Positions 26,314 through 64,000 of a stretch of DNA of 64,000 nt are shown here, in pieces (within the stretch, counting starts at the first letter, position 1; every line of letters starts with the position of its first letter). The notes under the pieces are model-generated. The model saw only the letters and a list, made by a program, of their open reading frames with translations. It was not told the origin of the DNA and ran no database searches. This stretch comes from an uncultured Candidatus Saccharibacteria bacterium (GTDB lineage Bacteria > Patescibacteriota > Saccharimonadia > Saccharimonadales > CAYLGV01), in contig CAYMZG010000002.1 in NCBI GenBank assembly GCA_964394925.1, positions 20,947-84,946 on the forward strand. Reading direction: 5' to 3'. Made by a program: the position numbers and the translations under genes.

Positions 26314-28143
26314 ATGAAAGATTCTAAAAAGAACCCGTATGCACTTGGTGCTATTGGTGAGGTCATCACGAAACTTGGTCTTCTATTCGTATCATTCTCA
26401 TTAGCTTTGAATATTTCGCGCTTCTTCCGTTTGCCGTATAAAAACCCGTATAACATCTCATCGCCTGGCAACGCCATCCATTTTATGCCAAACAATAATT
26501 ATCTACGGGTTATTGCGGTAATTGGTATTACAATTGGGCTGTTTTACGCCTTTCAATGGTTATTTAGGAAATCTAATCTACTCGCCAGGCTCACACTCGT
26601 TGGTCTCTTTAGTTTATTTGTTTTCTTTGGCTTTATTGCACCTAGTTATTCACACTTTGTTGGTAACGTTGACGTGTTCCATCATGGCGAACAGCTTGGC
26701 CCTGGCCTCGCATTCTATGAAGGAAAAACCTTATTTAAAGATGTTTTCTTTTTGCATGGGGCCGGTGAAGATGCAGTCCTACCAGCACTTTCGTTCCATA
26801 TATTCGGCAAGTCGATTGGCTCATACTACTTATTAAATGGTTTGCTTGAGGGGCTAAGTGCGGCGATCTTTATATTCTTAATCCACGTACTAATTAAGCA
26901 GCGTGACTTATTTATTCTCGCCCTTGTTTGGCTAACCAGTACAACTTACTCAACGTTCTATTACGTTCGAGATATCTTTGTTTGGATAAATATCCTGCTG
27001 GTCTATCTACTCTTTAGTCGCTCAATGAGTGTTAAGAAGCAACTTGGTGTCTACTTTGGAGTTGGGGTAGTCTCGGCGCTGGCTATGTTCCACTCCATTG
27101 ATCGAGGCATATACCTACTGGCCTTGGATGTCTTTGTAGTTATCGCTACTGCCTTACTTGTTGAAGGTAAAACGCAGTACGAGCTTGCCCCTAAGGCAGG
27201 GCTTGTTCTCAAGGCCAAGAAGATTGTGAGCCTTGGGGTTGGTTATCTTATTGTTTATCTGGCTGGTTTGGCTTACCTACGACCTGCCGCTTTTACGGAA
27301 TTCTTGAAGATGACGCTGCGTACTATTCCTAAGTTTGAGGGTATGATGTTTGACGGTCCGATCGCAAATCTTGACAAAGATACCTTACTGTTTTGGATAC
27401 CAATTATGGTTGCCACACTACTTACACTAATTCTCATTAAACAGGTTACGAAGCGTCAGAAGAAGTTTGATCGCCCATTCGCGTTTGCTGTTGTCTTCTT
27501 GTTGTTTGCACTTGTTTTCTTAAAGGGTGGTACCGGAATGGCCGATACGCCACATATGGCCTATGCTACCCCTGTTTTATTCCTGTGCGCCTTCTATATA
27601 TTCAGTATAACTATTCCTAAAATTTCTTGGAAAGGAATGCGGTGGACTGAGGTATGGCCAGTCTTTGTAGCGGCCGCTCTTATGTTCTGTCTGCCGACAT
27701 ACAATCTACTTAAAATCCCTGCTTACAACCAGGTATCAACTCCGCTTATTAAAAACTTCTTCAGAATGTACAAACAGCCAGATTCATACTGGCTTCCGCA
27801 GACCGTAAAAGATACCCGGGATTACATTACTAGTCATTCGAGTCCTGGTGACTCAGTATTTGTTATGTCTTCTCAGCCAATTTACTATTACCTCGCCGAC
27901 CGCAATAACCCATCGCGTTTCTACATCACCTGGTTCGCGGATCCACAACCATATACTAATGAAATGCTAGCAAGTCTCAAAAAAGATCCGCCCAAGTATA
28001 TTATTTACCAAACAGGAAACTATTACGACCGACCGCAGTTCATCCCAATGACCGAACGAGTACCAGAAGTTAACCAATGGATTCTTGATAACTATAAGCA
28101 TGACCAAACCCTAGACGGTACGGTAATTATTAAGTCTAAGTAA
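26314..28143 (+). CDS. Large polytopic membrane protein of unknown function (candidate polysaccharide polymerase or membrane glycosyltransferase)
   Basis: 609 aa, at least 12 predicted TM helices plus a C-terminal soluble domain; AT-rich; no signature motif recognised. Confidence 0.4.
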   Translation: MKDSKKNPYALGAIGEVITKLGLLFVSFSLALNISRFFRLPYKNPYNISSPGNAIHFMPNNNYLRVIAVIGITIGLFYAFQWLFRKSNLLARLTLVGLFSLFVFFGFIAPSYSHFVGNVDVFHHGEQLGPGLAFYEGKTLFKDVFFLHGAGEDAVLPALSFHIFGKSIGSYYLLNGLLEGLSAAIFIFLIHVLIKQRDLFILALVWLTSTTYSTFYYVRDIFVWINILLVYLLFSRSMSVKKQLGVYFGVGVVSALAMFHSIDRGIYLLALDVFVVIATALLVEGKTQYELAPKAGLVLKAKKIVSLGVGYLIVYLAGLAYLRPAAFTEFLKMTLRTIPKFEGMMFDGPIANLDKDTLLFWIPIMVATLLTLILIKQVTKRQKKFDRPFAFAVVFLLFALVFLKGGTGMADTPHMAYATPVLFLCAFYIFSITIPKISWKGMRWTEVWPVFVAAALMFCLPTYNLLKIPAYNQVSTPLIKNFFRMYKQPDSYWLPQTVKDTRDYITSHSSPGDSVFVMSSQPIYYYLADRNNPSRFYITWFADPQPYTNEMLASLKKDPPKYIIYQTGNYYDRPQFIPMTERVPEVNQWILDNYKHDQTLDGTVIIKSK

Positions 28144-50996: not shown

Positions 50997-52370
50997 ATGA
51001 AGGAAGACGTCTGGCAGGCGGTCCTGGGTGAAATCGAACTATCTGTCTCTCGAGGCAGCTTTGTGACGTGGTTCAAAAACACCAGGCTACTGCGTGACAA
51101 AGATGGCATCCTCACCATTGGCGTCGCAAACGTCTTCATTAAGCAGCAGATGGAGCGCAAATATAACGACTTAGTGCTTGAAACACTCCGGAAGAACGGC
51201 GTCAATCCAAAGCAGGTGGAATACAAGATCTACACCACTAGTCCTGCTGCCCGAAAAGAGGAAGAGCCCGTTATATTGAGCGCACAGCCTATTGTGCAAA
51301 CACCTACTCCTCAGTCCACCAATCGAACAGGCACTTCGTTGACACATGGCTACCGCCAGGGCCTCAACGAACGTTACACCTTTGAAAGCTTTATCGTTGG
51401 CTCTGGAAACGAATTAGCTTACGCGGCTTGCCAAGCGATTGCAGCAAGTCCCGGCACCAAGTACAACCCACTGTTTGTATATGGTGGTGTGGGAATCGGC
51501 AAAACCCATCTTATTCAGGCAGTTGGTAATGAAGTACTGGCCCGCAAGCCAGAGGCACGCATTGTGTACGCCTCTACCGAACAATTTGTACAAGAATTTG
51601 TTGATTCGCTGCGCTTTAAGAAGACGACCGACTTTGCTAAGCACTATCGGAGCGCCGACGTATTAATTGTCGACGACATGCAGTTTATTGCCGGCAAAGA
51701 AAAGGTCCAAGAAGAGTTCTTTCATACCTTTAATGCCCTGCACCAAGCCAATAAGCAGATTATTATAAGTAGTGATAAGCCACCGAAAGATATTCCAACC
51801 CTTGAGGAACGCCTGCGATCACGCTTTGCTTGGGGCATGCAGATCGACATGCAAAATCCCGACTTCGAGACACGCTGCGCTATCATTCAGACCAAATCAC
51901 AATTACACGGGGTCGAATTGACACCAGAAGTAATGGAATTCCTCGCTAACCTCGTGCAAACGAACATTCGTGAGCTAGAGGGCGCCCTAAACCAACTCCT
52001 CGCCTTCTGTGAGATGCGTGGACTCAGCCCAGACATTCAAATCGCCACCAGCCTGCTTGGCTCAACCAAGAGTCGCCCGAAGCACATTAGCGCCAAACAG
52101 ATTGTGGAGCGTACCGCCAAGTACTTCCAGGTACCGCTCGAAGATCTGCTAGGCCCAAAGCGCGACAAAGACATTGTTGTGCCCCGCCAGGTAGCCATGT
52201 ACATGCTCCGTAGCGAACTACATCTCAGTTTCCCTAAAATTGCCCGTGAACTTGGTCGCAAGGATCACACCACAGCCATTCACTCAGTCGACAAGATTGA
52301 AAAAGAGTCTTCTTTTGATACCGAAATCAAGACTGCTATTCATGATATTAAGGAGCGTTTGTATGCGTAA
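50997..52370 (+). CDS. dnaA: Chromosomal replication initiator protein DnaA
   Basis: 457 aa; AAA+ 'GGVGIGKTHL', 'LIVDDMQF', C-terminal DnaA DNA-binding domain 'VAMYMLRSELHLSFPKIARELGRKDHTTAIHSVDKI'. Confidence 0.95.
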   Translation: MKEDVWQAVLGEIELSVSRGSFVTWFKNTRLLRDKDGILTIGVANVFIKQQMERKYNDLVLETLRKNGVNPKQVEYKIYTTSPAARKEEEPVILSAQPIVQTPTPQSTNRTGTSLTHGYRQGLNERYTFESFIVGSGNELAYAACQAIAASPGTKYNPLFVYGGVGIGKTHLIQAVGNEVLARKPEARIVYASTEQFVQEFVDSLRFKKTTDFAKHYRSADVLIVDDMQFIAGKEKVQEEFFHTFNALHQANKQIIISSDKPPKDIPTLEERLRSRFAWGMQIDMQNPDFETRCAIIQTKSQLHGVELTPEVMEFLANLVQTNIRELEGALNQLLAFCEMRGLSPDIQIATSLLGSTKSRPKHISAKQIVERTAKYFQVPLEDLLGPKRDKDIVVPRQVAMYMLRSELHLSFPKIARELGRKDHTTAIHSVDKIEKESSFDTEIKTAIHDIKERLYA

Positions 52371-52620
52371 GCTGCACGTAACGTGTGTACAACCTGTGGT
52401 TAGTGCGTGGCAAAGCCTGTCTACAACCACCGCTACTTTGCCACATGTAGAATTTACAAACGCTGAGCTGGGTAAAAACCCTGCATTTATAACCACTCAA
52501 ACAACAGACTTTCCGACCACTTGTTCACAGCTAATTTTGTCAAATAACAGCGTGGAGTTGGTGGTTTTCCCCATTATCCCCAGGCTTAATAATGAATATA
52601 GCAAAGGAGAATAACTTATT

Positions 52621-53712
52621 ATGAAGTTACAAGTCACCCAGGAAAATCTCCACAAGGCTTTGCAGAGCGTTGGTCGTGTTGCTACAAGTCGTGGCACGTT
52701 GCCTATTCTGTCGAATATTCTCCTGAAGACTGTCGGCAACCGCCTGAGCATTGCCGCCACCAACCTAGACATCGCCATTACGCACTACATTGGTTCGAAA
52801 GTAAACGACGAGGGTGCGATCACCGTGCCAGCTCGCCTCATGGTAGATTTTGTTGCTAGCCTGCCAAGTGGCACCATCACCCTAAATCTTGACGACACCA
52901 AGCTGAAGATCACCACCGACCAATACGAATCAGTCATTAACGGCGTGAGTGCTGAAGAATACCCCGTTATGCCAGCTATTGCTGACGGTGTTACGTGGAA
53001 GGTGCCATCAAACGTGTTGCGTGGTGGCCTGCAACAGGTGCTTATGGCTGCCTCGACCGATGAAAGTCGCCCAGTTTTAACGGGAGTATATGTACATACT
53101 CACGAGGGTAAACTCTACCTTGTGGCTACTGATAGCTACCGCCTAGCCGAGAAGATGCTCATGCCAAGTAAGCAAGACATCAAGCTACTTATTCCAGCCA
53201 GCGCCCTACAAGATCTACTGCGCATTTTGGGCGATACCGAAGATGAAGTTACTATTACACACGATGAACAACAGGTGTTATTCCGTGTTGGCGATGTTGA
53301 GCTCGTCACGCGCCTCATTGAGGGTAACTTCCCTGACTACCGAAAGCTCATTCCGCAAAACTTTGCACACAGTGCCGACCTCAAAAAGGGTGAATTTGCC
53401 AACATCACCAAGGTTTCTGCTTTGTTTGCGCGCGAAAGTGCCGGCAGCGTAACGCTGCATCTCGACGAAGAAAAACAGCAAGTAAGCATCCGCTCAATTG
53501 CCTCACAACTCGGTGAAAACACCGCAAGTGCACCAGCGGCAATTACAGGCGAAGGCGTTATTACCCTCAATTCACGCTACATTCTTGATGCCCTGCATGC
53601 TATGAACGACGAAGGTGTGCGCATCGCCTTTAATGGTAAGCTTGAGGCTTGTGTGTTGAGTGCCCCGAAGCGCCCTGACTATACGCATGTGATCATGCCA
53701 CTCAAGAGCTAG
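52621..53712 (+). CDS. dnaN: DNA polymerase III beta sliding clamp
   Basis: 363 aa; 'MKLQVTQENLHKALQSVGRVATSRGTLPILSNILL' N-terminus; three-domain length; dnaA-dnaN-recF order. Confidence 0.9.
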   Translation: MKLQVTQENLHKALQSVGRVATSRGTLPILSNILLKTVGNRLSIAATNLDIAITHYIGSKVNDEGAITVPARLMVDFVASLPSGTITLNLDDTKLKITTDQYESVINGVSAEEYPVMPAIADGVTWKVPSNVLRGGLQQVLMAASTDESRPVLTGVYVHTHEGKLYLVATDSYRLAEKMLMPSKQDIKLLIPASALQDLLRILGDTEDEVTITHDEQQVLFRVGDVELVTRLIEGNFPDYRKLIPQNFAHSADLKKGEFANITKVSALFARESAGSVTLHLDEEKQQVSIRSIASQLGENTASAPAAITGEGVITLNSRYILDALHAMNDEGVRIAFNGKLEACVLSAPKRPDYTHVIMPLKS

Positions 53713-53737
53713 GTCATCTAAGGTACAATGGGCTGTA

Positions 53738-54787
53738 ATGATAGCCAAGCTGCGCCTGCAAAACTTTCGCTCATATTCCGACAAAACATTTGAGTTTGTT
53801 GATGGTGTAAACATTATCGTTGGGCCTAATGCTAGTGGTAAAACAAACCTTCTTGAAGGTGTGCTGATGATCTGTCGGGGCGGCACCTTTCGTGGCTCTG
53901 ACGACGAAGTGATTGCCCATGGCGAGGCTTGGGCTCGACTCGACGCTTTAGTGAACAAGCGGCCGCACACTGTAAAAATTCAACTGCAAAATGGTAGAAC
54001 GACCAAAGAGTATGTCTTTGACGGCAGTACCTATAAACACTTCTCAAGCACTATAAGCGTGCCGGTGGTGCTATTCGAGCCCAGCCACCTACAACTTCTC
54101 ACCGACTCCCCAGACCTGCGACGTAACTTTTTAGATGACATGATCGAGCAAGTAACACTTGGTTATGCTTCATTGCGGCGTAACTACAAGCGTGCCCTTG
54201 CCCAACGAAACAGTCTACTCAAACAGGCCTTCACGCAAGACCAGATATTTATATGGAATGTGCGCCTTAGCGAGTTTGGCGGCCAAATTGCCGACGAGCG
54301 GCGACGTTTCCTGGAGACACACCAAACAATTCTTCAAGAAGTGTACGATCAACTGGCCGATGAGCCAACCGAAGCACGTACACACTACGTGACTAAACTA
54401 AATACCGACAACTACTCCTCATCAATGCTAAAAGCCCTCGAAGCAAACTTGCGCATTGACCAAGAACGTGGCTACACAACGGTCGGACCACACCGAGATG
54501 ACCTTGGCCTAGAACTTCGCGGCTACAACCTGTCTGAAGCCGCCTCACGCGGCGAAACGCGCACTATGTTACTGGCGCTCAAGCTACTTGAAGCACGGGC
54601 CATAGAACAGGCCCAGCGAACCAAACCAATCCTGCTGCTAGATGATGTGTTTAGTGAGCTCGATGCCACCAGGCGGCACGCCCTCACAACATTCATCCAG
54701 GATCACCAAACGTTTATTACCACCACCGATGCCGATATCTTTGACGGCAAACTCCCTGCCAAGTCACAAACAATACGCTTTAACTAA
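53738..54787 (+). CDS. recF: DNA replication and repair protein RecF
   Basis: 349 aa; Walker A 'GPNASGKTNLLE', C-terminal 'ILLLDDVFSELD' Walker B/D-loop. Confidence 0.85.
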   Translation: MIAKLRLQNFRSYSDKTFEFVDGVNIIVGPNASGKTNLLEGVLMICRGGTFRGSDDEVIAHGEAWARLDALVNKRPHTVKIQLQNGRTTKEYVFDGSTYKHFSSTISVPVVLFEPSHLQLLTDSPDLRRNFLDDMIEQVTLGYASLRRNYKRALAQRNSLLKQAFTQDQIFIWNVRLSEFGGQIADERRRFLETHQTILQEVYDQLADEPTEARTHYVTKLNTDNYSSSMLKALEANLRIDQERGYTTVGPHRDDLGLELRGYNLSEAASRGETRTMLLALKLLEARAIEQAQRTKPILLLDDVFSELDATRRHALTTFIQDHQTFITTTDADIFDGKLPAKSQTIRFN

Positions 54788-54801: not shown

Positions 54802-56325
54802 CTAATCTGCGTACGGATTTACGATTACAAACCTAGTCGTATCAATGCCGCTTGCCTTTACGTCTGCCATCACAGCATCATTAGCTTTGCGCTTCTTCTC
54901 GGGCGAATAGCCATACGATTTTGAGGCTGGTACATACTCTAGTTCCCCGAGATTCGGTGATATAAACAGATACTTACCATAGGCCGATACATCTGAGATA
55001 TTCGAGGAATGCAACAGAACATCAACTTGCTTATCAATGGGTGAATCAACAGCAGATTCGCCGAGTTCCAGCATTACCCCAGTGCCCTTTGTATTGGTGA
55101 GGTTCAAAAGTGCCCCATTGCCAGAGGGTGATATGCTATTTAACTGATAATTGCCGAGCCGATAAGCTATGTAGCCATATCCATTTGTGGTATTCACATA
55201 GATAACGTCGCGACCTTTCAAAAATAACAGGCCGTCTTTTCCTGACCTGCCCATAATGCTTACATCAGGTACCTGGGCCACCTTCTTTAGTTTGCCGCCC
55301 GATGCGTCGTAAATAGTAAGGCCGGATGTTTCGTCGATGGTGCATATGCTCTGCTGTCCACAGAGCGAGGTTGCAAAATATGTTCCACTTAATGAAAAGT
55401 GCTTGGCTTTTCCATTCGAATACTTCACCAATTCAGTCTTCGGGTTCGGGGTTGATCCATCAGTATCACCAACACTGTTTGAATAGGTCGCCAATAGGCT
55501 TTTTCCATCAGCATCAAAACGAATCGGAATATCCACACCTTTAACCGAAGGCAGTTCTAATTTCTTAGGGCTTGCTTTCGGGCCCGAGAAATACTGCACA
55601 TCCCTAAATGTTAGGTCATACATAACAAAACCGTCTTCATAAGGAACCGCTGTGTATGTTTTGTCGTCTTTCAGGCCCGAAAGATATGTTGCACTCCCCG
55701 TTTCGGTAATGATGCCTGCTGCTTGATTCAGACTTAGGGCAGAGTGTGCGCTTGGCAGGCCTATCGACTCCAACTGCTTGCGCACATATAATGGGCCACC
55801 CTTTGTATTAATAATCCCCTCTACTTGTCTCGTAAAGCCATTACTGGGGCTTCTTGCAGATGTCGGGAGTTGTTGGCTAGCAGGAACATGAACTTTGATT
55901 GTGTCTGCTGTGCCACCACACGTGTGGCTAACAAGCACCGCATTAATTATTTCGGCACATGATGCTGGATTGTTGCCCACAAAACTTCGCGAACGTTCTG
56001 CCTCAAGCGCAATTTTTGGGGTGGTTTTAGACAAGAAGTGGCCCACCACAACACTTGTCCAGTAACTCTTATCACCATCAACAGCAAGCACCGTGTATCT
56101 ACCACTCCTCAGGATTTTGGTCCCCGGTTTCGTGGTTTGTTGTAAGCCATTGCTGTTACCTGATACATAGTACGTCACATCTGTATTATTTTGTGCGGAG
56201 TCTAGTTGAAGGCGCCCACGTCCATATAGCCACCAAATGACCATGGCCATAACTATGAATAACAAGCCAAAAACAATAAACCGACGATAACGTGACATAA
56301 GACTAAGTATTACATTATCTTGCAT
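54802..56325 (-). CDS. Hypothetical membrane-anchored extracytoplasmic protein (last gene of the VirB4-containing operon)
   Basis: 507 aa; N-terminal TM 'FIVFGLLFIVMAMVIWWLY', then a large Ser/Thr/Gly-rich predicted beta-rich ectodomain; start overlaps the upstream stop (ATGA at 56325-56328). Confidence 0.4.
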   Translation of the reverse strand: MQDNVILSLMSRYRRFIVFGLLFIVMAMVIWWLYGRGRLQLDSAQNNTDVTYYVSGNSNGLQQTTKPGTKILRSGRYTVLAVDGDKSYWTSVVVGHFLSKTTPKIALEAERSRSFVGNNPASCAEIINAVLVSHTCGGTADTIKVHVPASQQLPTSARSPSNGFTRQVEGIINTKGGPLYVRKQLESIGLPSAHSALSLNQAAGIITETGSATYLSGLKDDKTYTAVPYEDGFVMYDLTFRDVQYFSGPKASPKKLELPSVKGVDIPIRFDADGKSLLATYSNSVGDTDGSTPNPKTELVKYSNGKAKHFSLSGTYFATSLCGQQSICTIDETSGLTIYDASGGKLKKVAQVPDVSIMGRSGKDGLLFLKGRDVIYVNTTNGYGYIAYRLGNYQLNSISPSGNGALLNLTNTKGTGVMLELGESAVDSPIDKQVDVLLHSSNISDVSAYGKYLFISPNLGELEYVPASKSYGYSPEKKRKANDAVMADVKASGIDTTRFVIVNPYAD

Positions 56326-56327
56326 AA

Positions 56328-58592
56328 CTAACCACCACAGCCATTTGGATTACTCACACCCGGAGGTACGGTGAGGCCATTCTTAAAGGGGTCAACATTA
56401 GCGTGGTCCCAGCCACTATAATCACCCGGGAAGGTGTTGAAGTGAAGGTGTGGCCCGGTTGATATTCCGAGACTGCCCTGCTCACCAATCTGTTGACCTT
56501 GTTTAACTTGGTCGCCTTCATGGACCATCATAGAGTTCATATGACCATAGCTTGTCCCAAACTTAATAGATTCGTGTTTTATAACAACAAAGTTTGGTCC
56601 ATATCCTCCTGCCGGCCCCGCCTTTACCACCACGCCATCGGCTGCCGCAAAAATCGGTGTTTCACTGGGCGGGCCACTGTTTGAAATATCAATTCCTGGG
56701 TGTCCACCCGGACCACCAAAGCACTGAGTAATATAGCTCTTTTCTATTTTTTCGGGCCATGAGAACGTGCCGCCTGTTGGGCCCTGCTGACCACCCTGAC
56801 TACAGCCTCCACCTCCGCCACCAGATCCATTGCCGGCAACCGGCATGCCTGATCCGAACTTGGCCACCGCGGCATGGGCGGCATCAACGCGAGTTTTATG
56901 AAATTCCTGAGGCGGTTTGGTTTCTGGTGTCGGGCCTTTGTTGTTTACTATAATTCCGCGGTGTGTCTCGTAGTAGATCTCGATAAGTTGTGTAGCCTTA
57001 TCAATTATATCTTCCCCTGGGTTTGGTGTTTCAGCGTCTATCTTTTGTATTCGTTCCAATAATGGTTTGTATTTATTCTGCAGCTCCCACATTATATAAT
57101 CAAGCTGCAGGCCTAGATCAGACACGGGCTTGCCTTGATCAGATGCCATTTTGTTTAAGGGGTCTTGTCTGTCATGGAATGACCATTGGATAAGTCCATA
57201 CCCTCGCCCGTCAATCGTGGCGTCTCCTGTTGTGCCAGGTTCAAGCGCTCGTGGGTTAAGACCCGATTCCTCTGTCATGTTTCCAATAAAACCCCCCGCC
57301 ACTGCTGGCGCAAAGCCTTTGCCAATGAAGAAGTTGAATATCTTCTCGGCATTCTCACCGCCAACTAACGTGGTGCTGCTAGTCCCGCCGCTACCACCAC
57401 AAGTACAGCCACCCCCATTTCCGCTTTTTGTTGCGCTATCATTTCCCATATTCGCTTTTGCAGCCGTTATTTTTGCCGAAGAAGCTTCAATTTGAGTTTT
57501 GAGGGCTGGATCAGCGTTAGCTGCCTGCTCAACTTTATCAATAATTGCCTTTAATTGATCTTCGCCTGTGAAGAGCGCGATATCAGCCCCGCTTTTTATT
57601 GCTTCTAAGGCACTGTCGGCTAGCGCGCCAGGTCCTCCCAAGCCACCCGCCGCCAAGTCATCTGTAATAATAATGCCATTAAATTGATACTCATTTTTTA
57701 GTAAGTCGTAAGTTGCCTTACTCTTACTGGCTGGTACACCGTTTGTGAGCCCAGGAACACTATAATTTCCTACCATCACCCAAGCCCCAGTGGTGTTGTT
57801 GGCTAAAAGCGTTTGATACGGTTTAAGATCGAGCCCTTTTAGTTCATCTAGGCTTGGTGATGAGCCAGCAACTTGGTCGGAATTCACCGTTGTTCGGCCA
57901 ATGCCCGGAAAGTGCTTGTATACTGGCGTAATGCCACCGGCCTTTAGCCCTTCAGCGTACGCTCCGGCTTTTTCGGCAATAACATCAGGGTTGTTAGAAA
58001 ACGCTCGTTGTATGTTACCAATCGCCGGACTATTTGGGCTGTCAATGTCTACTACCGGGGCGGCATCGAACGTACCACCAATCTCTTTAATTTTTGTGGC
58101 CGTGTCGGTGCCAAGCTTCTTTACCTGATCCACCGACATACCTCCCATTGCCTTGGCGCTCGGGGTGCCCAACTTCAGTCGGTCAACTTGACCACCCTCC
58201 TGGTCGAGTCCCACAAACGGTGTAGGACTAAACTTTGATTTAGCAGCATTAATCTTTGCCCCATCAAAAAAGGGAGTATTCACAAAAAAGCCACCAACAT
58301 GGTAGGTGCTAACAGCATCATTAGCTTGTGCTTCGCTTGTGACGAGCGGAATCATCATCTGACCAATTTGGTCTCGCAGACCAGTGAGCGCGGCTGGTAC
58401 ATTACTATTCTTTTTACCCACATCACAGGCCACAACATCTTGATACATGGTATGGTCGCCATAAATTGCCTTACTCTCGATATTGGCGTCTGCATAGGCG
58501 ATTGTACTGACTGTCGGCAGAAGAATGATTAAAATTGAAATCAGAAGAGTGCGAGCCACCGTGCGAAGCGCTACCAATAGCCTGCGGATCAT
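56328..58592 (-). CDS. Secreted three-domain cell-wall hydrolase: GH3 beta-N-acetylhexosaminidase (NagZ-like) + phage-tail-lysozyme-like domain + M23 (LytM) metallopeptidase
   Basis: 754 aa; signal/TM 'LLISILIILLPTVSTIAYA'; GH3 blocks 'GLDQEGGQVDRL', 'KHFPGIG', 'NGIIITDDLAAGG'; Gly-rich linkers; 'FIGNMTEESGLNP...GRGYGLIQWS' lysozyme-like block; M23 'HPGIDIS' (HxxxD) and 'GPHLHF' (HxH). Confidence 0.7.
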   Translation of the reverse strand: MIRRLLVALRTVARTLLISILIILLPTVSTIAYADANIESKAIYGDHTMYQDVVACDVGKKNSNVPAALTGLRDQIGQMMIPLVTSEAQANDAVSTYHVGGFFVNTPFFDGAKINAAKSKFSPTPFVGLDQEGGQVDRLKLGTPSAKAMGGMSVDQVKKLGTDTATKIKEIGGTFDAAPVVDIDSPNSPAIGNIQRAFSNNPDVIAEKAGAYAEGLKAGGITPVYKHFPGIGRTTVNSDQVAGSSPSLDELKGLDLKPYQTLLANNTTGAWVMVGNYSVPGLTNGVPASKSKATYDLLKNEYQFNGIIITDDLAAGGLGGPGALADSALEAIKSGADIALFTGEDQLKAIIDKVEQAANADPALKTQIEASSAKITAAKANMGNDSATKSGNGGGCTCGGSGGTSSTTLVGGENAEKIFNFFIGKGFAPAVAGGFIGNMTEESGLNPRALEPGTTGDATIDGRGYGLIQWSFHDRQDPLNKMASDQGKPVSDLGLQLDYIMWELQNKYKPLLERIQKIDAETPNPGEDIIDKATQLIEIYYETHRGIIVNNKGPTPETKPPQEFHKTRVDAAHAAVAKFGSGMPVAGNGSGGGGGGCSQGGQQGPTGGTFSWPEKIEKSYITQCFGGPGGHPGIDISNSGPPSETPIFAAADGVVVKAGPAGGYGPNFVVIKHESIKFGTSYGHMNSMMVHEGDQVKQGQQIGEQGSLGISTGPHLHFNTFPGDYSGWDHANVDPFKNGLTVPPGVSNPNGCGG

Positions 58593-61500
58593 TTCGACGG
58601 CGCCTTTCCAATAGTCTCCACCGCCTTGTCCACAAGTGGACCATAATTTGTTGGGTGTATGCCATCCGGTGTGTATGGTATTGGCGGTGCAATACCAGCG
58701 TAATCTATGACCGTAACGCTGTGGCTACTAGCAAACTTTGCCAATAGATCAGTCTTGCCTTTGCCATGATCCCCGAGCGAATTGAGGTAGTAGTTCACCC
58801 AGAATATCTTGGCGTTAGGGGCATTTGCTTTAACCTTGTCGTACGTTGTTTGCAGGCTTGAGTTAAAGGCGTCATCCCCAGCACCTAGGTCATTGGTTCC
58901 GAGTGCTACTACGACCGCTCCGGCATTCGACATGATGGCTTTGTCGGCGTCCATTTGCTGGATGCCACCAGGGCTTGGTGGTTCTCCGGTCATGTGCCGT
59001 GACACCAACCCATTACTCGTAACACTCCAGCCATTGGCTTGCAGTTTGGTATCTAGGCCCGCAGCCTTGGCGCCCACCGTATAGGAGTCGCCCACCCAGT
59101 AAAGATTGGCATTACTTGCCGATGAACCATTGGTTCCGGTGTTGGCTGTGCTGCCACTGCCACCCTCGGGTGAATAGGCATTGTCACCGGTATAGCCGTA
59201 CAGACCACCAATGTTACCCATCACGCGACTGTCGAAGATTGCACAGTTGTAAATTTTGTCTGCGGCAGCGGGGTCCATCTCTTTCTCCTTGATGGTCCCG
59301 TACACTTTTTCCCAGAATTTGTCGCCATTGCGCATAACTTCCCAGTCGAGCGACTTAGGATCCAGACCTATATCACTCACATTACTACTTTTCGATAAAT
59401 AATCTGGGTCAAGTGGATCCAGACCTTGGCATTGTGGAGGTATGTCGTATTTGTCGACACCGGCCCAGTCTGATATATCTGAGGCTTTTCCTGGATCTGC
59501 CGCAAAGGCTCTGCCACTTAACATATTTCCAAAAACCGTAGGCAGGCTGCTGAGGCTTGTAAATAGGCTACTGATCTGCTGGGTTATTGGCTTGTTGCTC
59601 ACAGCAAAAAGAGTGCTTGCCGCAAAAGAATCGGGATTATCGAGTGACGCATAACGATCGAATAACGATTCGCTTGCTTTCTGCTCGTTATCATAATTAG
59701 TGGCTAACTTATTTGTATAATCAAGCGATGCCTTAGTTGATGCTGCACCCCCTGATTGACGAGTTGACGCCTCTGCTTGAGCTGCACCCCCCGCGACAAG
59801 CAAGTTTCCAATTCCTGGAGACGAGCCATCGAACATTGGTCCACCACCAAGCACACCGACCAACTTCATCATAAGTGCGCCTATTTGTGATTGAACATTC
59901 TTTCCGAATTCGGTCTCAGCCGCGAAACCTACCAATGGCTCAGTAACCTTGCCAATCAAATCCGGTATAAAGTTCGAAACCCATTCAACGCCAGGTATTT
60001 TTTTGACTCCACGTACACCACCAGCAACTACGCCTATAAAAGGCTTAAAATTTTTCTCATATACATTTGACAGCATCGCCGCATTACCACCGTTTCCTGG
60101 ATTTTGATCATCACAATACCAGGAAAAATCACTAAATGAGCGTTTTGATGGCTCTTTTTCGCAATATGCTTTTTTGGCCACTTTATCTGCATCGCTAGTG
60201 CCAGCACTTCTGCCTGTTGCCTGCAACCACCCTTCGCTATTGCCAATATTTTGCGTTGTCGCAAAAAAGTCTTGTAATTGATCCCCAACCAATTCACCCG
60301 ATTTCATTTGATCACTTGCAATTGAATAGGTAGCAAACAAACCAATTAGCTGGGCTCGTTTCGCATTTTTTACCATCATAGATAGCTTGCTAGTTTCCCC
60401 ATTGCCAAATAGATCATCTACCCTTTCCATCCATTTTGCGATCGTCCATATTTTATCCGGGCTGGGTATTGGTGCGGCACTCTGTATTACCTTACCAATC
60501 TCTTGACCAGTCACCTTGGCAATAAGTGTGTAAATGAGGCGCTTGGATATGCTGGACCCCTCAAGTATCTTAGCGGTTTCCTTGCTCAGGCCCTTGTCCG
60601 CTTCGCCTTCCACGGCATTTGTTAATAGCTTCTGAGTCTCGTCCTTAAGATCACCCGACACCTCGTTCTCAGCTGCCTTTTGTGCGGCCTTTGCCTGCTT
60701 GCCTTCATCGTCTTTTGGCTCTTTCTCTGGCAAATCGTCGCCACCACTCCCATTCAGCCCATTCTGGGGGTCGGCCACATCACTCGATCTAGCGCAGCTA
60801 CCATTTGAAAAGATACATTTAAGTAAATTTGCAGTATTTGGATTACGCCCAAAGAAAATATCTATCATCTTGGCATATAGCTGGTCTTTACGAGCTTGTA
60901 TACCTTTCGCGAGTTTATCTCGTGTTTTCTCGAATAATCGCCATGACTTAATGCCCGCAACACTCTCAACATCTTTGCGTACATGTCGTCGCTTGAATAC
61001 TCTGTACCATGGGACCTCAGAGTCGACAACCTCTTTTACGGCTTTGCGCGCTGCTTTGTGTGTGTCGAACTTATCGACCACAAACATTCTTTCCAAATCT
61101 TTGTCGGGTATTGCTGATAGTTTCTGTGCAATATTGTTTGCACTGATCGGCCCGCCGTTATCGGCATCTAATAAGTACTTTCCAACCAGATCGGGATGTA
61201 TCTTTTCTAGTGCGGTTATACGCGCGGTGGATATGTTTCCCTGGTTATCAACTATGCTAACAAATGATATGCCCTGCTTGCCAAAAACACTTTCCTCAAA
61301 CTTATTTTTACGGAGGGTTGCATACCAATCCTTAAGCGGATTCTTCCCGTCGCCTACTTTATCACCCTTAAAAAATAATGTTTCCCCATCGGTTTTTCCC
61401 TCATATTCAGCAACGCGCATTTTTATATATGCTTTTGTTAGGCTCTTGTTTCGGGTATCGAGGGACGCCTTAAGTCGCTTGCTAGTATGAGCTTCTGTAT

Positions 61501-61909
61501 TCTTAAAGAAGTGATCCATTTGGAAGGTGTGCAAGAAGTTGAACATGAAAACACCCATGATAACCGCAACCAATCCAGCGCCGCCCATGGCACCAAGCGC
61601 ACCCTTACGTTTAAGGAGACTCTTGCCCGAACCACCCACAGTAGCTTTTCCTTTGTAAAAGCTATCTTTCTCACGGGCATCAGCGAACATGTTCCCAAAA
61701 CGCGACTCGAGCGCGTCGCCACCACCAGTATTCCCGGCGTCAGGTTCGGCTTCTTTTTCGCTCAACTGTTCTGGCGTTAGACTGGAGGCTTCATCTGCAC
61801 GGGCAGATGCTTCAATGCTGGCTTCTTCATCGGGGTCTATACCGGTGATGCTTCGAAGATCGTCATCACTGACGCGCTGGTCCTCATCATCATAAACGGC
61901 GTTAGGCAT
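58589..61909 (-). CDS. 1106-aa single-pass membrane protein with acidic cytoplasmic N-terminus, large ectodomain and C-terminal SGNH/GDSL hydrolase domain
   Basis: TM 'GALGAMGGAGLVAVIMGVFMFNFL' at about aa 105-130; C-terminal SGNH blocks 'LYWVGDSYTVG', 'VVALGTNDLG', 'DGIHPT'; ATG overlaps the stop of the downstream hydrolase gene. Confidence 0.6.
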   Translation of the reverse strand: MPNAVYDDEDQRVSDDDLRSITGIDPDEEASIEASARADEASSLTPEQLSEKEAEPDAGNTGGGDALESRFGNMFADAREKDSFYKGKATVGGSGKSLLKRKGALGAMGGAGLVAVIMGVFMFNFLHTFQMDHFFKNTEAHTSKRLKASLDTRNKSLTKAYIKMRVAEYEGKTDGETLFFKGDKVGDGKNPLKDWYATLRKNKFEESVFGKQGISFVSIVDNQGNISTARITALEKIHPDLVGKYLLDADNGGPISANNIAQKLSAIPDKDLERMFVVDKFDTHKAARKAVKEVVDSEVPWYRVFKRRHVRKDVESVAGIKSWRLFEKTRDKLAKGIQARKDQLYAKMIDIFFGRNPNTANLLKCIFSNGSCARSSDVADPQNGLNGSGGDDLPEKEPKDDEGKQAKAAQKAAENEVSGDLKDETQKLLTNAVEGEADKGLSKETAKILEGSSISKRLIYTLIAKVTGQEIGKVIQSAAPIPSPDKIWTIAKWMERVDDLFGNGETSKLSMMVKNAKRAQLIGLFATYSIASDQMKSGELVGDQLQDFFATTQNIGNSEGWLQATGRSAGTSDADKVAKKAYCEKEPSKRSFSDFSWYCDDQNPGNGGNAAMLSNVYEKNFKPFIGVVAGGVRGVKKIPGVEWVSNFIPDLIGKVTEPLVGFAAETEFGKNVQSQIGALMMKLVGVLGGGPMFDGSSPGIGNLLVAGGAAQAEASTRQSGGAASTKASLDYTNKLATNYDNEQKASESLFDRYASLDNPDSFAASTLFAVSNKPITQQISSLFTSLSSLPTVFGNMLSGRAFAADPGKASDISDWAGVDKYDIPPQCQGLDPLDPDYLSKSSNVSDIGLDPKSLDWEVMRNGDKFWEKVYGTIKEKEMDPAAADKIYNCAIFDSRVMGNIGGLYGYTGDNAYSPEGGSGSTANTGTNGSSASNANLYWVGDSYTVGAKAAGLDTKLQANGWSVTSNGLVSRHMTGEPPSPGGIQQMDADKAIMSNAGAVVVALGTNDLGAGDDAFNSSLQTTYDKVKANAPNAKIFWVNYYLNSLGDHGKGKTDLLAKFASSHSVTVIDYAGIAPPIPYTPDGIHPTNYGPLVDKAVETIGKAPSK

Positions 61910-61943
61910 ATTTGTGTCTGCTTTCCCGAATCATCTCCTTAGA

Positions 61944-63869
61944 TTATACCCCCGGGTATAGTCGGTTGCCTAAGTCAATTGTCCCTTCTGGTTGGTCAAT
62001 TTCTCCCGCCTGCCCTGGCATAGGCTGTTGTGCTGGCGAAGAACTAATCAGTCCCGTCTCTGTTGCACTGGCGGTTATTTGAATATGAACATGGTTCTGT
62101 CCTGCAAAGAATAAACCTTGTCCGACTGGGAATTGGCTTAGACGCTTGCGTTCTTCACTAGTAAGCTTAAAGACATCCGCTAGAACATCAACAGCCGAAG
62201 GCGACTGCTTAAGCAACAGTTGCATAGAGGCGTTAGCTACAATAGCTCGTCCCATTCTCGAGCCCATAAAGTCTTCAACGTCTTGCGAAATAGTCGTAAT
62301 ACCAAGGTTATACTTACGGGCGCGCTTAGCGAGGCTAAACAAAAAATTCGCCGAGTCTTCGTATTGCATGAGTTGCCAGGCTTCATCAACAATAAGAATG
62401 CGTCGCTTCTGGTCGGTCTTGGTCTTGTTCCATATGTAGTTTAGAACAATGTACATTGCCACTGGTCGAAGTTCGTCCTCAAGGTCACGCACGTTAAACA
62501 CAACCATCGGGTTGTCGATGTCTATATTTGACTGCTGTGAAAAGATACCTGCAAAGGTACCGGTCGTGTACTTACGTAAGCGCTGGGCGAGTTGGGGGCC
62601 TGTTCCGCCCATATGCAGGAGGGTGTCATATAGGTCGGCAATGGTTGGTGGTATGCCGGTATGCGTGAGGGGGTCATTTGTAATGCCAGCTTTGGCATAG
62701 GTCTCAATCAGGGCAGCATCTAGGTCTGATTCTTCAACTGGCGTCAGCGCAGGGGCGGTAACACCGTTACCACCGCCTTGCATTTGTGCCTGAGCGCCGC
62801 CCATCATGAGGCGAAGTAAACCATGCAAAGTAACAAGATTGCTACGGAGGGCGTTATCTGCCTCTTCAGAATCAACAACTTTTGGAAGATCAAAGGGATT
62901 AATTCGAGTGTTTGAATTGAGGCTTAGGCGTACATAGGCGCCACCAACAGCATCACACATCCGTTGATACTCATTCTCTGGGTCAATAATAAAGATTTCA
63001 GTTCCAAACATCATGCTGCGTAGCGCTTCAAGCTTCACGGCAAATGACTTACCAGCACCAGACTTGGCAAACACTGTTGAGTTGCCGTTCTCAAGTGTGA
63101 AACGGTCAAAAATTACCAAGCCCGAGTTATGCATGTTAATGCCGTACAAAATACCATTATCTTGGCTCAAATCGGCCGAGGTAAACGGAAAGCTTGTACT
63201 AAGTGCGCCAGTGCTCATATTGCGTCGAATTTGCAGTTGATCGGTAAACTGCGGCACCGTTCCGTTTAGCCCCTGCTCCTGTTGGGATGTAGCGGGCTTT
63301 GAGTAAACCAACTGTTGACCAAGGATTGACTCAACCTTATGTGAAACGAACTCTAACTCCTCCAAACTGCTGCCATATAAGGTAAAGTACAGCCCAAAGC
63401 GGAAGAAGCGCTCTTCCCCAACCTGTAGCTTGTCACGCATTTCCTCGGCGTCGATAATGGCCGCTTGTTTGCCCGGGTCACGTACTCGGCCTTTTTCGGC
63501 ATCGATCTGAACACCTGCCTCGAGCTGACTCACCTTCTTACGGAGATTCTCGAGCACTACCTGACTCTCAACCGGATAGATGTACATGGAGAGATCAATC
63601 ACCTCATCGAGGTTAACCATACCACTTAACCAACCAGTATAAAGTTGGCGTGGGTAACCGTACACGTAGTACGTGCGGGCAAAGCGCGTACCGAGTTGGA
63701 AATACGTTGCCTTATATTCAATAGAACTTGGCGCAATGAAGTCGCGTAGAGCAGTAATGCCCTTACGAAACGCCTCATCAACCTCTTTCTGCTCGCGCAT
63801 GCGCTGGGCCTGGGCGGTGGCAACGGGATCAACAATATTTTGAGAGCCTTTGTTTTTGCCGAGTGCCAT
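61944..63869 (-). CDS. virB4: VirB4/TrbE/CagE-family type IV secretion ATPase
   Basis: 641 aa; Walker A 'VFAKSGAGKSFAVK', Walker B 'RILIVDEAWQLM', VirB4-typical length and hydrophilic N-terminal domain; ATG overlaps the upstream stop (TAATG). Confidence 0.75.
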   Translation of the reverse strand: MALGKNKGSQNIVDPVATAQAQRMREQKEVDEAFRKGITALRDFIAPSSIEYKATYFQLGTRFARTYYVYGYPRQLYTGWLSGMVNLDEVIDLSMYIYPVESQVVLENLRKKVSQLEAGVQIDAEKGRVRDPGKQAAIIDAEEMRDKLQVGEERFFRFGLYFTLYGSSLEELEFVSHKVESILGQQLVYSKPATSQQEQGLNGTVPQFTDQLQIRRNMSTGALSTSFPFTSADLSQDNGILYGINMHNSGLVIFDRFTLENGNSTVFAKSGAGKSFAVKLEALRSMMFGTEIFIIDPENEYQRMCDAVGGAYVRLSLNSNTRINPFDLPKVVDSEEADNALRSNLVTLHGLLRLMMGGAQAQMQGGGNGVTAPALTPVEESDLDAALIETYAKAGITNDPLTHTGIPPTIADLYDTLLHMGGTGPQLAQRLRKYTTGTFAGIFSQQSNIDIDNPMVVFNVRDLEDELRPVAMYIVLNYIWNKTKTDQKRRILIVDEAWQLMQYEDSANFLFSLAKRARKYNLGITTISQDVEDFMGSRMGRAIVANASMQLLLKQSPSAVDVLADVFKLTSEERKRLSQFPVGQGLFFAGQNHVHIQITASATETGLISSSPAQQPMPGQAGEIDQPEGTIDLGNRLYPGV

Positions 63870-64000
63870 TACTGCAGACTCCTGTCGAGCTGTGGTTGCG
63901 GTGCGGCACCCTGCCCCTTGGTTATGACAGGCGTAGAAATGTCATTAAAGTTTTTCAGTGGCTGGCGAGTAGCAGTGTCGGGGTTGTAGGTGTCATAGTA
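63869..64000 (-). CDS. 3' end of an upstream operon gene (partial, continues beyond window)
   Basis: Hand translation of the minus strand ends '...YYDTYNPDTATRQPLKNFNDISTPVITKGQGAAPQPQLDRSLQ*', with the stop TAA overlapping the virB4-like ATG by 1 nt. Confidence 0.4.
   Translation of the reverse strand, partial: YYDTYNPDTATRQPLKNFNDISTPVITKGQGAAPQPQLDRSLQ

Follow-up and report, generated by a model that had tools for sequence, protein, structure and literature searches.

A hypervariable wall-enzyme cassette behind virB4 in the distal half of the Saccharibacteria chromosomal type IV secretion locus

A gene for a VirB4-type ATPase followed by genes for two giant proteins with cell-wall-hydrolase modules, all lying beside dnaA, dnaN and recF, raises the question of whether such a locus is a mobile conjugative element, a resident secretion machine or a lytic module of a different kind. 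The locus was found in a 64-kb window (the whole stretch of DNA analysed, 64,000 nucleotides) from a genome of the Saccharibacteria (TM7/Patescibacteria), ultra-small bacteria with a lifestyle on other bacteria. At positions 54802-64000, four complete minus-strand ORFs and a fifth that leaves the window end are tightly packed on one strand, in agreement with the first-pass annotation, which had described at least five consecutive genes. In operon order, these are the 3' end of a TrsD/TraC-like gene (63869 to beyond 64000; 43 codons, frame open to the window end), virB4 (61944-63869, 641 aa), the genes for giant-1 (58589-61909, 1106 aa) and giant-2 (56328-58592, 754 aa) and, as the last gene, that of a 507-aa membrane-anchored protein (54802-56325). 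Because the complete ORFs encode 507-1106 aa and have Pfam matches down to E=4e-46, their reality is far beyond chance, and Pfam, motif and TM inspection bore out the earlier domain calls for all four proteins. The adjacency to plus-strand dnaA (50997-52370), dnaN (52621-53712) and recF (53738-54787) was confirmed by Pfam, the stops of recF and the convergent 507-aa gene being 14 nt apart; lying near the presumed replication origin, these three genes bound the T4SS locus in a conserved convergent arrangement. Overlaps of 1-4 nt had been described throughout the operon, and two of the four junctions do have them: the TAA of the TrsD/TraC-like gene overlaps the virB4 ATG (TAATG at 63867-63871), and the start codon of giant-2 shares the ATGA at 58589-58592 with the stop of giant-1. 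The virB4/giant-1 junction, however, is a 34-nt spacer, and at the giant-2/507-aa junction the supposed ATGA at 56325-56328 is instead a 2-nt gap (TAG-tt-ATG).

The 641-aa ATPase matched the Pfam families P-loop_TraG (93.7 bits), AAA_10 and DUF87, and carries the Walker A motif SGAGKS at residues 270-275 (63045-63062) and the Walker B motif ILIVDEAW at residues 491-498 (62376-62399). Against the NCBIfam equivalog NF045971 ('VirB4-like, CD1110 family') it scored 350.7 bits, with a cut-off of 325, covering positions 178-732 of the 752 in the profile, and its best solved relative was the C-terminal domain of Thermoanaerobacter VirB4 (PDB 4AG5, E=2.7e-48). These two matches place the protein in the VirB4 family, as first annotated, and reject an assignment to FtsK/HerA. 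Near-identical VirB4 is present in thousands of Saccharibacteria sequences, identity to the VirB4s of Saccharibacteria MAGs being 83-95%. In L001, the closest relative, the gene directly upstream of virB4 encodes a PF26593 TraC-like protein whose C-terminus the 43 residues of the partial ORF match without a single difference; judged by this identity, the ORF is a TrsD/TraC-like, split-off N-terminal VirB4-like partner of the ATPase.

Among Saccharibacteria species loci with enough flank, convergent recF-dnaN-dnaA follows virB4 after 4.7-8.5 kb in 60 of 61, and almost all surveyed loci share the order virB4, giant-1, hydrolase, tail, recF. Thus the locus is core territory and not an ICE, and the position beside recF, which had been taken for an anomaly to be checked in related genomes, is in this group the rule. 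Relatives with the full architecture (L001-L004 and L086-L089) encode, upstream of virB4, TraC-like/TrsD, PrgI (VirB3-like) and TrbL_3 (VirB6-like) proteins together with a divergent array of VirB2-like pilins, which supplies the T4SS parts beyond the ATPase that the first-pass annotation had sought; since this upstream half lies outside the window, we infer it from these relatives. As had been noted, no integrase was seen at the locus, nor was att-type context found; T4CP, relaxase and integrase were absent among the window's 20 largest ORFs, the 64 kb held no tRNA gene, and no relaxase or coupling protein was found near the T4SS locus in relatives. Because of this absence and the conserved recF-side position, we read the locus as a resident, non-conjugative machine, as had been proposed. 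That it is the remnant of an ICE inserted beside recF by chance appears extremely improbable: its VirB4 is of an MPF-FATA-related conjugative lineage (NF045971; PMC12102498), but positional conservation already contradicts this reading, and so do the missing mobility and tRNA genes, a GC content not obviously different from that of the remaining window, a VirB4 better conserved than DnaA or DnaN, and the classing of its counterparts as essential in Southlakia epibionticum (PMC10633639).

The absence of a coupling protein and relaxase would also suit an import machine modelled on Helicobacter ComB and the archaeal Ced system, in which VirB4 drives uptake of host nucleic acids or nutrients and the hydrolases open the host envelope. 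Uptake via a pilus conduit has been speculated on in reviews (PMC12857230), and a 2026 preprint describes a host-RNA-acquiring parasite with tubular structures, possibly T4SS pili. We consider this explanation rather unlikely, since the weak NCBIfam similarity of VirB4 to CedB/CedD lies far under the cut-offs while its best match is of the conjugative CD1110 type, and since S. epibionticum can dispense with ComEC-dependent transformation (PMC12857230).

The region is the distal half of the published Saccharibacteria/Patescibacteria chromosomal T4SS locus, and the novelty at first attributed to the system is thereby lost (PMC7427843, PMC10633639, PMC12102498, PMC12857230). A survey of Patescibacteria reported an MPF-FATA-related VirB4 clade, without relaxase and near dnaA (Quinonero-Coronel 2025, PMC12102498), and a review covers the same T4SS (PMC12857230). 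Positions 54802-64000 are the positional counterpart of S. epibionticum SEML1_0004-0009, within a gene-for-gene match that spans SEML1_0003-0009. Both in S. epibionticum ML1 (T4SS, SEML1_0004-0019) and at the TM7x locus, which belong to the same phylum, the order is convergent recF, small exported protein(s), a multi-lysin, a giant of ~1100 aa, VirB4 and a TrsD-like protein, with PrgI, a VirB6-like protein and a pilin array (here seen in relatives) next beyond; these loci likewise lie beside dnaA-dnaN-recF and have no relaxase or T4CP. Tn-seq of S. epibionticum in co-culture with its host found SEML1_0004-0011 and the pilin genes 0014-0019 essential (Wang 2023, PMC10633639). That essentiality is the one of positional counterparts which carry different enzyme modules. 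The difference lies in the set of enzymes that cut the cell wall: giant-1 ends in an SGNH module whereas its counterpart SEML1_0007 has a Hedgehog/DD-peptidase fold, giant-2 combines GH3, lysozyme and M23 whereas SEML1_0006 has two lysozymes and a cysteine-proteinase fold, and a single 507-aa TM and beta-propeller protein stands in place of two beta-sandwich/PEGA proteins of ~210-250 aa (SEML1_0004/0005). The earlier claim of a hydrolase load heavier than in described analogues finds no support, given the two lysozyme-like, cysteine-proteinase and DD-peptidase folds of SEML1_0006/0007.

PrgK of pCF10 already bears three lytic domains, M23 (LytM) among them, and both PrgK and TraG are membrane-anchored multi-domain wall hydrolases encoded beside the ATPase. 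With the MPF-FATA members compared (C. difficile CTn CD1110-type, pCF10 Prg/Pcf, pIP501 Tra and pGO1 Trs), the locus shares such a hydrolase, a VirB4 above the CD1110-family cut-off, TrsD-like and PrgI-like partners and a monoderm architecture without an outer-membrane core. Unlike them, it lacks relaxase, coupling protein and mobile-element context, has a fixed core-genome position and, in relatives, a VirB2-like pilin array that the Gram-positive systems do not have; no SLT or CHAP domain was found by Pfam in the window proteins, and the hydrolase carrier has a scaffold of ~800 aa with no recognisable fold.

That carrier, giant-1, consists of an acidic N-terminal tail, a single strong TM segment (residues 103-131, 61517-61603), the helical scaffold with six conserved cysteines (59135-61516) and a C-terminal SGNH esterase module (58592-59107; Pfam domain at residues 939-1090) with intact GDS940, GTND1004 and DGIH1082 motifs. 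Structure comparison found no solved homologue of the scaffold, and an AF2 model of giant-1 gave no usable fold (pLDDT 39). The scaffold family comprises 448 cluster representatives at E<=0.001, whose matches mostly end near residue 910-930, and its profile matched 44 of 46 proteins occupying the position across species; some homologues end in an SGNH module and others in M23, with the same join point. Given a scaffold without recognisable fold or homologue, it is topology and position that suggest a role for giant-1 as an N-in/C-out bitopic carrier tethering an enzyme to the machine. Giant-2 is probably a secreted multi-hydrolase: a hydrophobic, signal-like N-terminal segment (58485-58592) precedes a GH3 module of the LpqI/NagZ type (GH3_N residues 72-375, 57468-58379), a phage-tail-type lysozyme (Phage_lysozyme2 residues 413-518, 57039-57356) and an M23 endopeptidase (residues 630-720, 56433-56705), all called by Pfam and joined by Gly/Cys-rich linkers. 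The lysozyme motif GNMTEES437 and the M23 motifs HPGID631 and HLH715 are intact. The 507-aa protein has an N-terminal TM helix, a small beta-sandwich and then a beta-propeller with WD40/YncE-like fold matches. TM segments or a signal-like N-terminus, a basic stretch preceding the TM and conserved pairs of cysteines lead us to infer that all three proteins are extracytoplasmic.

Relative to the window, median identity was 86% for VirB4, 72% for DnaA, 67% for DnaN and 50% for RecF, whereas the three proteins downstream of VirB4 are mostly unrecognisable between species: of 60 loci, 2 had a giant-1 match at >=80% coverage and none had one for giant-2. In L001, DnaN (96%) and VirB4 (95%) are nearly those of the window, but only 1.6% of giant-1 and 6.4% of giant-2 residues are identical, while a more distant pair (DnaN 91%) kept 59% and 71%, respectively. 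The virB4 stop (61943) is the exact point at which DNA similarity to L001 breaks off; similarity returns at 54738, inside the recF 3' end. A module census counted 12 Pfam families in the giant-1 position and 17 in the giant-2 position; GDSL, M23, CHAP and Amidase_2 occur in either, and the census also contains several esterase families and modules of phosphodiesterase type (GDPD, Exo_endo_phos). Enzyme modules are swapped on a homologous chassis, and the virB4-recF interval behaves as a hypervariable cassette, which is what our survey adds to the published T4SS. This pattern is the one expected for parts facing a target that varies, the host envelope for example; the fast evolution could alternatively stem from weak constraint or from variation in the wall of the epibiont itself.

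Exchange of the cassette independently of virB4 would fit three distal genes that form a separate envelope or predation module, co-transcribed with the T4SS and standing outside it, and around the 34-nt spacer a sigma-70-like match (10 of 12) occurs at 61972-61943. The promoter scan as a whole, however, was at chance level (15 found, 12.8 expected), a giant-1-family gene directly follows virB4 in 44 of 46 species tested within the near-universal gene order, and the counterparts fall into the Tn-seq class of the core T4SS genes (PMC10633639), making a separate module very unlikely.

We consider it likely that the region is the promoter-distal half of a conserved chromosomal Saccharibacteria T4SS working as follows. 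A split VirB4, forming a hexamer docked on VirB3/VirB6, would drive the building of a channel or pilus that crosses the monoderm envelope of the epibiont. Of the three same-strand envelope proteins encoded behind it (bitopic scaffold, three-module hydrolase and anchored beta-propeller), the N-in/C-out scaffold of giant-1 would keep its exchangeable enzyme, in the window an SGNH esterase, at the machine; together with secreted giant-2 this enzyme would make local openings in peptidoglycan and the wall polymers associated with it, both in the epibiont and, probably, in the host wall at the contact site. The apparatus could then gain access to the host membrane and transfer proteins or nutrients. 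While the ATPase is nearly frozen, the downstream genes are replaced or re-assorted between lineages. An attack on the host wall, raised by the first annotation, is a plausible hypothesis. Possible, though not what we would expect, is a classical VirB1 role alone, in which the hydrolases cut only the epibiont's own peptidoglycan for passage of the channel or pilus, as PrgK, TraG and CwlT do in Gram-positive conjugation, and the variability is drift or follows differences in Saccharibacteria wall chemistry. The anchoring of giant-1 beside VirB4, the translational coupling and the M23 (LytM) domain shared with PrgK agree with such a role, and it has been proposed that peptidase or lysozyme genes downstream of virB4 may replace VirB1 (PMC12102498). 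Against it, ~25 enzyme families are more than the own-wall chemistry of one bacterial order should call for, the whole cassette is replaced between near relatives, and the lysozyme and M23 pair resembles phage lysins acting from outside; a dual role on own and host wall may accommodate these points.

Virion-associated lysins of the phi29 gp13 type breach the target cell wall from outside. Giant-2 residues 413-725 have their architecture, with the PF18013 lysozyme followed by M23, and giant-2 matched phi29 gp13 (3CSQ), M23 structures and PHROG families spanning lysozyme and M23; it differs in being a non-phage protein of a T4SS operon with a signal-like N-terminus and an additional N-terminal GH3 module. 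This GH3 module aligns end to end with mycobacterial LpqI (6GFV, E=2.2e-50) and has further matches in 4YYF (E=7.8e-48) and 5IOB (E=1.5e-42), from M. smegmatis and Corynebacterium; the next hits are worse than these three by over 18 orders of magnitude. The KHFPG motif is retained, as is the DD nucleophile region, but the module scores 100.9 against the NCBIfam NagZ equivalog cut-off of 207, shares its polypeptide with two lysins and is probably exported, outside any recycling-enzyme setting, and in place of the acid/base dyad D-S-H reads N-S-D (57876-57917). Because the NagZ Asp-His dyad is absent, the module may not be a working glucosaminidase, and a GH3 module occupies this cassette position in 1 of 51 species only.

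Profile and structure-database matches identify the 641-aa protein encoded at 61944-63869 on the minus strand as a true VirB4. Both motifs named in the first-pass annotation as marks of a VirB4-family ATPase are present, namely Walker A (AKSGAGKS, with SGAGKS at residues 270-275) and Walker B (ILIVDEAW at 491-498). The protein scored 350.7 bits against the NCBIfam equivalog NF045971 for CD1110-family VirB4 (cut-off 325) and 93.7 bits against Pfam P-loop_TraG (cut-off 25.8). Its closest solved structure is the VirB4 C-terminal domain 4AG5/4AG6 (E=2.7e-48, residues 232-605), and it also matched TrwK, the VirB4 of R388, at E=4e-05. The possibility that the ATPase is of the FtsK/HerA type, for which DUF87/HerA gave 27.7 bits only, was ruled out by the NF045971 and 4AG5 scores; the CedB, CedD and TcpF models scored far under their cut-offs. 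The NF045971 alignment spans profile positions 178-732 of 752, consistent with an N-terminal domain encoded by a separate gene. Directly upstream of virB4 lies a TrsD/TraC-like gene, the last 43 codons of which fall inside the window and whose stop overlaps the virB4 start; these 43 residues show no difference from the C-terminal end of the TraC-like (PF26593) protein whose gene lies just before virB4 in L001, the locus of the closest relative. A search with the 641-aa protein gave more than 8000 candidates below 1e-10, and relatives were drawn from 80 GTDB species loci together with many metagenome proteins. Nearly all of the 80 recovered virB4 loci are recorded as Saccharibacteria, Saccharimonadales or Patescibacteria, the window protein is 83-95% identical to Saccharibacteria MAG proteins annotated VirB4/TraC, and by these sequence relationships it belongs to the Saccharibacteria/Patescibacteria lineage. 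We also observed that the constraint on VirB4 among Saccharibacteria species is unusually strong for a secretion ATPase.

The region 54802-64000 carries four complete minus-strand open reading frames, of 507, 754, 1106 and 641 aa, and a fifth frame (63869-64000) that is open up to the window end. The TAA of this fifth frame overlaps the ATG of the 641-aa gene in TAATG at 63867-63871, and the genes for the 1106-aa and 754-aa proteins, hereafter giant-1 and giant-2, share an ATGA at 58589-58592; both overlaps had been listed in the first-pass annotation and were found in the sequence. A third, ATGA at 56325-56328, had been listed wrongly, because the sequence there reads TAG-tt-ATG, leaving a 2-nt gap between the giant-2 stop and the start of the 507-aa gene. 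The 641-aa and 1106-aa genes are spaced by 34 nt, and the 507-aa stop lies 14 nt from the end of the convergent recF. Promoter and terminator scans both stayed at chance level. In the 34-nt spacer (61902-61934, minus strand), AGGAG abuts an out-of-frame ATG that opens a 10-codon mini-ORF, MIRESRHKYA, with its stop just beyond the giant-1 start codon; this arrangement could be fortuitous or could serve coupling. The 641-, 1106-, 754- and 507-aa proteins are singletons, all from one NCBI contig.

This region is securely the distal half of the Saccharibacteria type IV secretion system (T4SS) locus. In relatives, 4-5 PF18895 pilin genes stand in a divergent array at the start of the locus. Several unknown genes and those for TrbL_3/VirB6-like, PrgI and TraC-like proteins lead from there to VirB4, behind which lie the genes for a giant and a multi-hydrolase, then one or two for small proteins and finally the convergent recF-dnaN-dnaA. 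The PrgI/VirB3-like gene, the VirB6-like gene and the VirB2-like pilin array were seen in all relatives examined (L001-L004, L086, L088), and the corresponding stretch lies beyond the window end. A conserved T4SS region in Saccharibacteria was described by McLean 2020 (PMC7427843). Wang 2023 (PMC10633639) recognised in Southlakia epibionticum an apparent T4SS, SEML1_0006-0019, which the bacterium cannot do without when it is co-cultured with its host. Gram-positive conjugative systems are its nearest likeness, but it possesses pilins and has neither coupling protein nor relaxase. That locus matches the window gene for gene in layout: SEML1_0001-0003 are dnaA, dnaN and recF, and on the opposite strand follow 0004/0005 (beta-sandwich/PEGA), 0006 (two lysozyme domains and a cysteine-proteinase fold), 0007 (1113 aa, with a C-terminal DD-peptidase fold as the only one recognised), 0008 (VirB4), 0009 and 0010 (PrgI) (PMC10633639). 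The Tn-seq essential class comprises all of SEML1_0004-0011, 0013 and the pilin genes 0014-0019, an essentiality known for the S. epibionticum counterparts only (PMC10633639). Quinonero-Coronel 2025 (PMC12102498) reported the VirB4 clade, TrsD, PrgI, VirB6, pilin arrays, a lack of relaxases and a location close to dnaA, and suggested that VirB1 may have its place taken by the peptidase and lysozyme homologues encoded directly after virB4. According to a 2025 review (PMC12857230), the Patescibacteria T4SS is the first T4SS reported to be essential for the survival of its carrier, and a pilus conduit for it is speculation there. The chromosomal T4SS-like system proposed in the first-pass annotation is a correct rediscovery of this published locus, and the window leaves the published picture of the Patescibacteria T4SS unchanged. 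The kind of system is already known; new here is the specific enzyme set, made up of the SGNH domain, a GH3 domain with an altered dyad and a propeller-type last gene.

Convergent recF-dnaN-dnaA, located in the window at 50997-54787 on the plus strand, lie 4.7-8.5 kb downstream of virB4 in 60 of the 61 species loci that have at least 9.5 kb of sequence downstream of virB4. We considered whether the locus could be an ICE remnant or a conjugative T4SS, and rejected this on its near-universal single position, the lack of a tRNA gene in the 64-kb window, and the lack of a relaxase, coupling protein or integrase among the 20 largest window ORFs. The window and, in relatives, the 10 kb upstream likewise revealed no relaxase, coupling protein, integrase or att site, and in GC content the locus did not visibly differ from the remaining window sequence. 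The earlier proposal of a resident rather than a conjugative system, with conservation beside recF as its check, is borne out. Besides the T4SS locus and dnaA-dnaN-recF, the window contains a polysaccharide-synthesis cluster, rnpA, yidC and a KH/R3H (jag-like) gene.

Giant-1 (58589-61909) consists of an acidic N-terminal tail, a basic flank, one strong transmembrane segment (103-131), a mainly helical stretch of about 800 aa and an SGNH end. SGNH blocks I, III and V are intact (GDS940, GTND1004, DGIH1082); the C-terminus scored 41.7 bits against Pfam Lipase_GDSL_2 (cut-off 32.9), and the module has no relative in the PDB (best E=0.17). Relatives of giant-1 numbered 6 in a word-indexed search and 448 cluster representatives with full HMMER, most matches among the latter stopping near residue 910-930; among homologues at 40-46% identity the junction lies at the same point, and the module behind it is SGNH in some and M23 in others. 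A scaffold profile matched 44 of the 46 proteins following virB4 in other species, as collinear pieces, which indicates that the scaffold is one old, fast-diverging family. All six cysteines of giant-1 are invariant or nearly so across it. The scaffold has no relative in Pfam, NCBIfam, PHROG or the PDB; searching all PDB sequences with a 61-sequence profile yielded nothing significant (best E=0.036, ZorA), and an AF2 model from 7 homologues was unusable (pLDDT 39, pTM 0.27). The most conserved part of the scaffold, at residues ~680-760 (window ~59630-59870), has many invariant residues in a Gly-rich, weakly hydrophobic motif (LGxGPMFDG..PGxGNLLVAGGA..AE.STR.SGG), which could be membrane-interacting.

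Giant-2 (56328-58592) starts with a hydrophobic, signal-like N-terminal segment, followed by three modules with Gly/Cys linkers between them. The GH3 module (158 bits against Pfam Glyco_hydro_3) is closest to mycobacterial LpqI (6GFV, E=2.2e-50), the next non-LpqI-like matches being near 1e-24, and it keeps the fold with KHFPG226 and the Asp nucleophile region ITDDLA309. In NagZ and LpqI the Asp-His catalytic dyad motif is D-[ST]-H after KHFPGxG. At this place giant-2 (residues 226-239, window 57876-57917) reads N-S-D where LpqI and 4YYF read D-S-H. Because of this altered dyad, and since the NagZ equivalog NF003740 gave 100.9 bits, under its cut-off of 207, glucosaminidase activity of the module is uncertain; it may lack activity, rely on another acid/base, or act in glycan binding. 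A metagenome scan for GH3 module relatives gave only one, at 28% identity, and no close relative. The lysozyme module (PF18013, 85 bits) has the conserved Glu-containing N-terminal motif GNMTEES437, and the M23 module (Pfam, 86.5 bits) has the zinc motifs HPGID631 and HLH715. Giant-2 matches phi29 gp13 (3CSQ) at E=3.6e-11, and its lysozyme-M23 pair has the architecture of phi29 gp13-type phage virion lysins. The same lysozyme-M23 chassis recurs, collinear and at 30% identity, in the protein of a relative (L086), which has a weak chlorophyllase-family (alpha/beta-hydrolase) match at the place of the window's GH3.

The model of the 507-aa protein (54802-56325; pLDDT 83.8) shows a transmembrane helix, then a beta-sandwich and after it a beta-propeller; its fold matches were all generic. 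The domain calls of the first-pass annotation were all correct. In 8 of 63 loci the gene order ends with a protein of the 507-aa type. In the others the final position is filled differently, in many cases by two proteins of ~200-260 aa, which is the arrangement of L001 and S. epibionticum.

Conservation along the locus was expressed as median identity to the window over 60 species loci. VirB4 (86%) proved more conserved than DnaA (72%), DnaN (67%) or RecF (50%) in loci L001-L084. At a coverage of at least 80%, giant-1 was detectable in 2 loci, giant-2 in none and the 507-aa protein in 7. Between the window and L001, DnaN is 96% and VirB4 95% identical, and identical residues amount to 1.6% in giant-1 and 6.4% in giant-2. 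A more distant pair (DnaN 91%) has kept 59% in giant-1 and 71% in giant-2, and in some other pairs one giant is replaced and the other retained. Drift alone does not seem to explain this uneven conservation, because the nearest relative has lost its likeness in the giants and a more distant pair has kept it. Compared as DNA, the window and L001 are similar precisely as far as the virB4 stop (61943) and become similar again at 54738, ~50 nt inside the recF 3' end. Across species, giant-1 modules include VanY, GDSL, Exo_endo_phos, M23, M14, CHAP, Amidase_2, GDPD and others. Giant-2 has Phage_lysozyme2 in 35 of 51 species, with M23, GDSL, C39-like, CHAP, NlpC/P60, glucosaminidase, Amidase_2/3, SLT, M15 and esterases as further modules; GH3 occurs in the window only. 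No description of such cassette behaviour of the virB4-recF interval was found in the papers on this T4SS that were consulted.

As to function, we infer a mechanism in which VirB4 would power a channel or pilus, aided by tethered and secreted wall enzymes that would open the epibiont's own wall and probably the host's too. A purely self-directed, VirB1-like role is the less likely alternative; enzyme diversity and cassette exchange favour the host-facing role. Going further, the virB4-recF interval might be a horizontally exchanged host-range cassette, with a near-invariant T4SS core and swappable wall enzymes, displayed on the host surface or set free there, matched to the host envelope, in which case the LpqI-like GH3 and SGNH would point here to a mycolic-acid actinobacterial host; we put the chances of this well below even. 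On this reading the LpqI-like GH3 domain might have been captured from a mycolic-acid actinobacterium. The comparison provides a handle, since the ATPase is nearly frozen and the adjoining enzyme cassette is replaced even among close relatives. Should the cassette follow the type of host envelope, hosts of uncultured Saccharibacteria might be predicted from it, and domain-swap experiments on host range would be guided by it.

Elsewhere in the window, a large surface-polysaccharide cluster at ~12000-48000 encodes an initiating sugar transferase, several GT2/GT4 glycosyltransferases, a Wzt-type ABC ATPase, a Wzy_C ligase-like protein, a DUF2142 membrane protein, UDP-glucose dehydrogenase, phosphoglucomutase and an epimerase/dehydratase. 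Outside the T4SS locus, 44965-47814 (plus strand) encodes a second large SGNH/GDSL protein, of 949 aa, whose Pfam SGNH match suggests an insertion in the domain, since at residues 342-617 it is far longer than the 178-position model. Two ORFs, 26314-28143 (plus strand, 609 aa) and 5244-6560 (minus strand, 438 aa), have no Pfam match at all. The 250-nt dnaA-dnaN spacer (52371-52620) may be the replication origin; a small ORF of 83-96 aa is called between dnaA and dnaN in relatives, and we rejected it as its sequence is not conserved. Finally, in one relative (L088 16233-16640, L089 7069-7476) a gene for a 135-aa protein matching 23S_rRNA_IVP (PF05635) lies between recF and dnaN, interrupting the otherwise fixed dnaA-dnaN-recF block.
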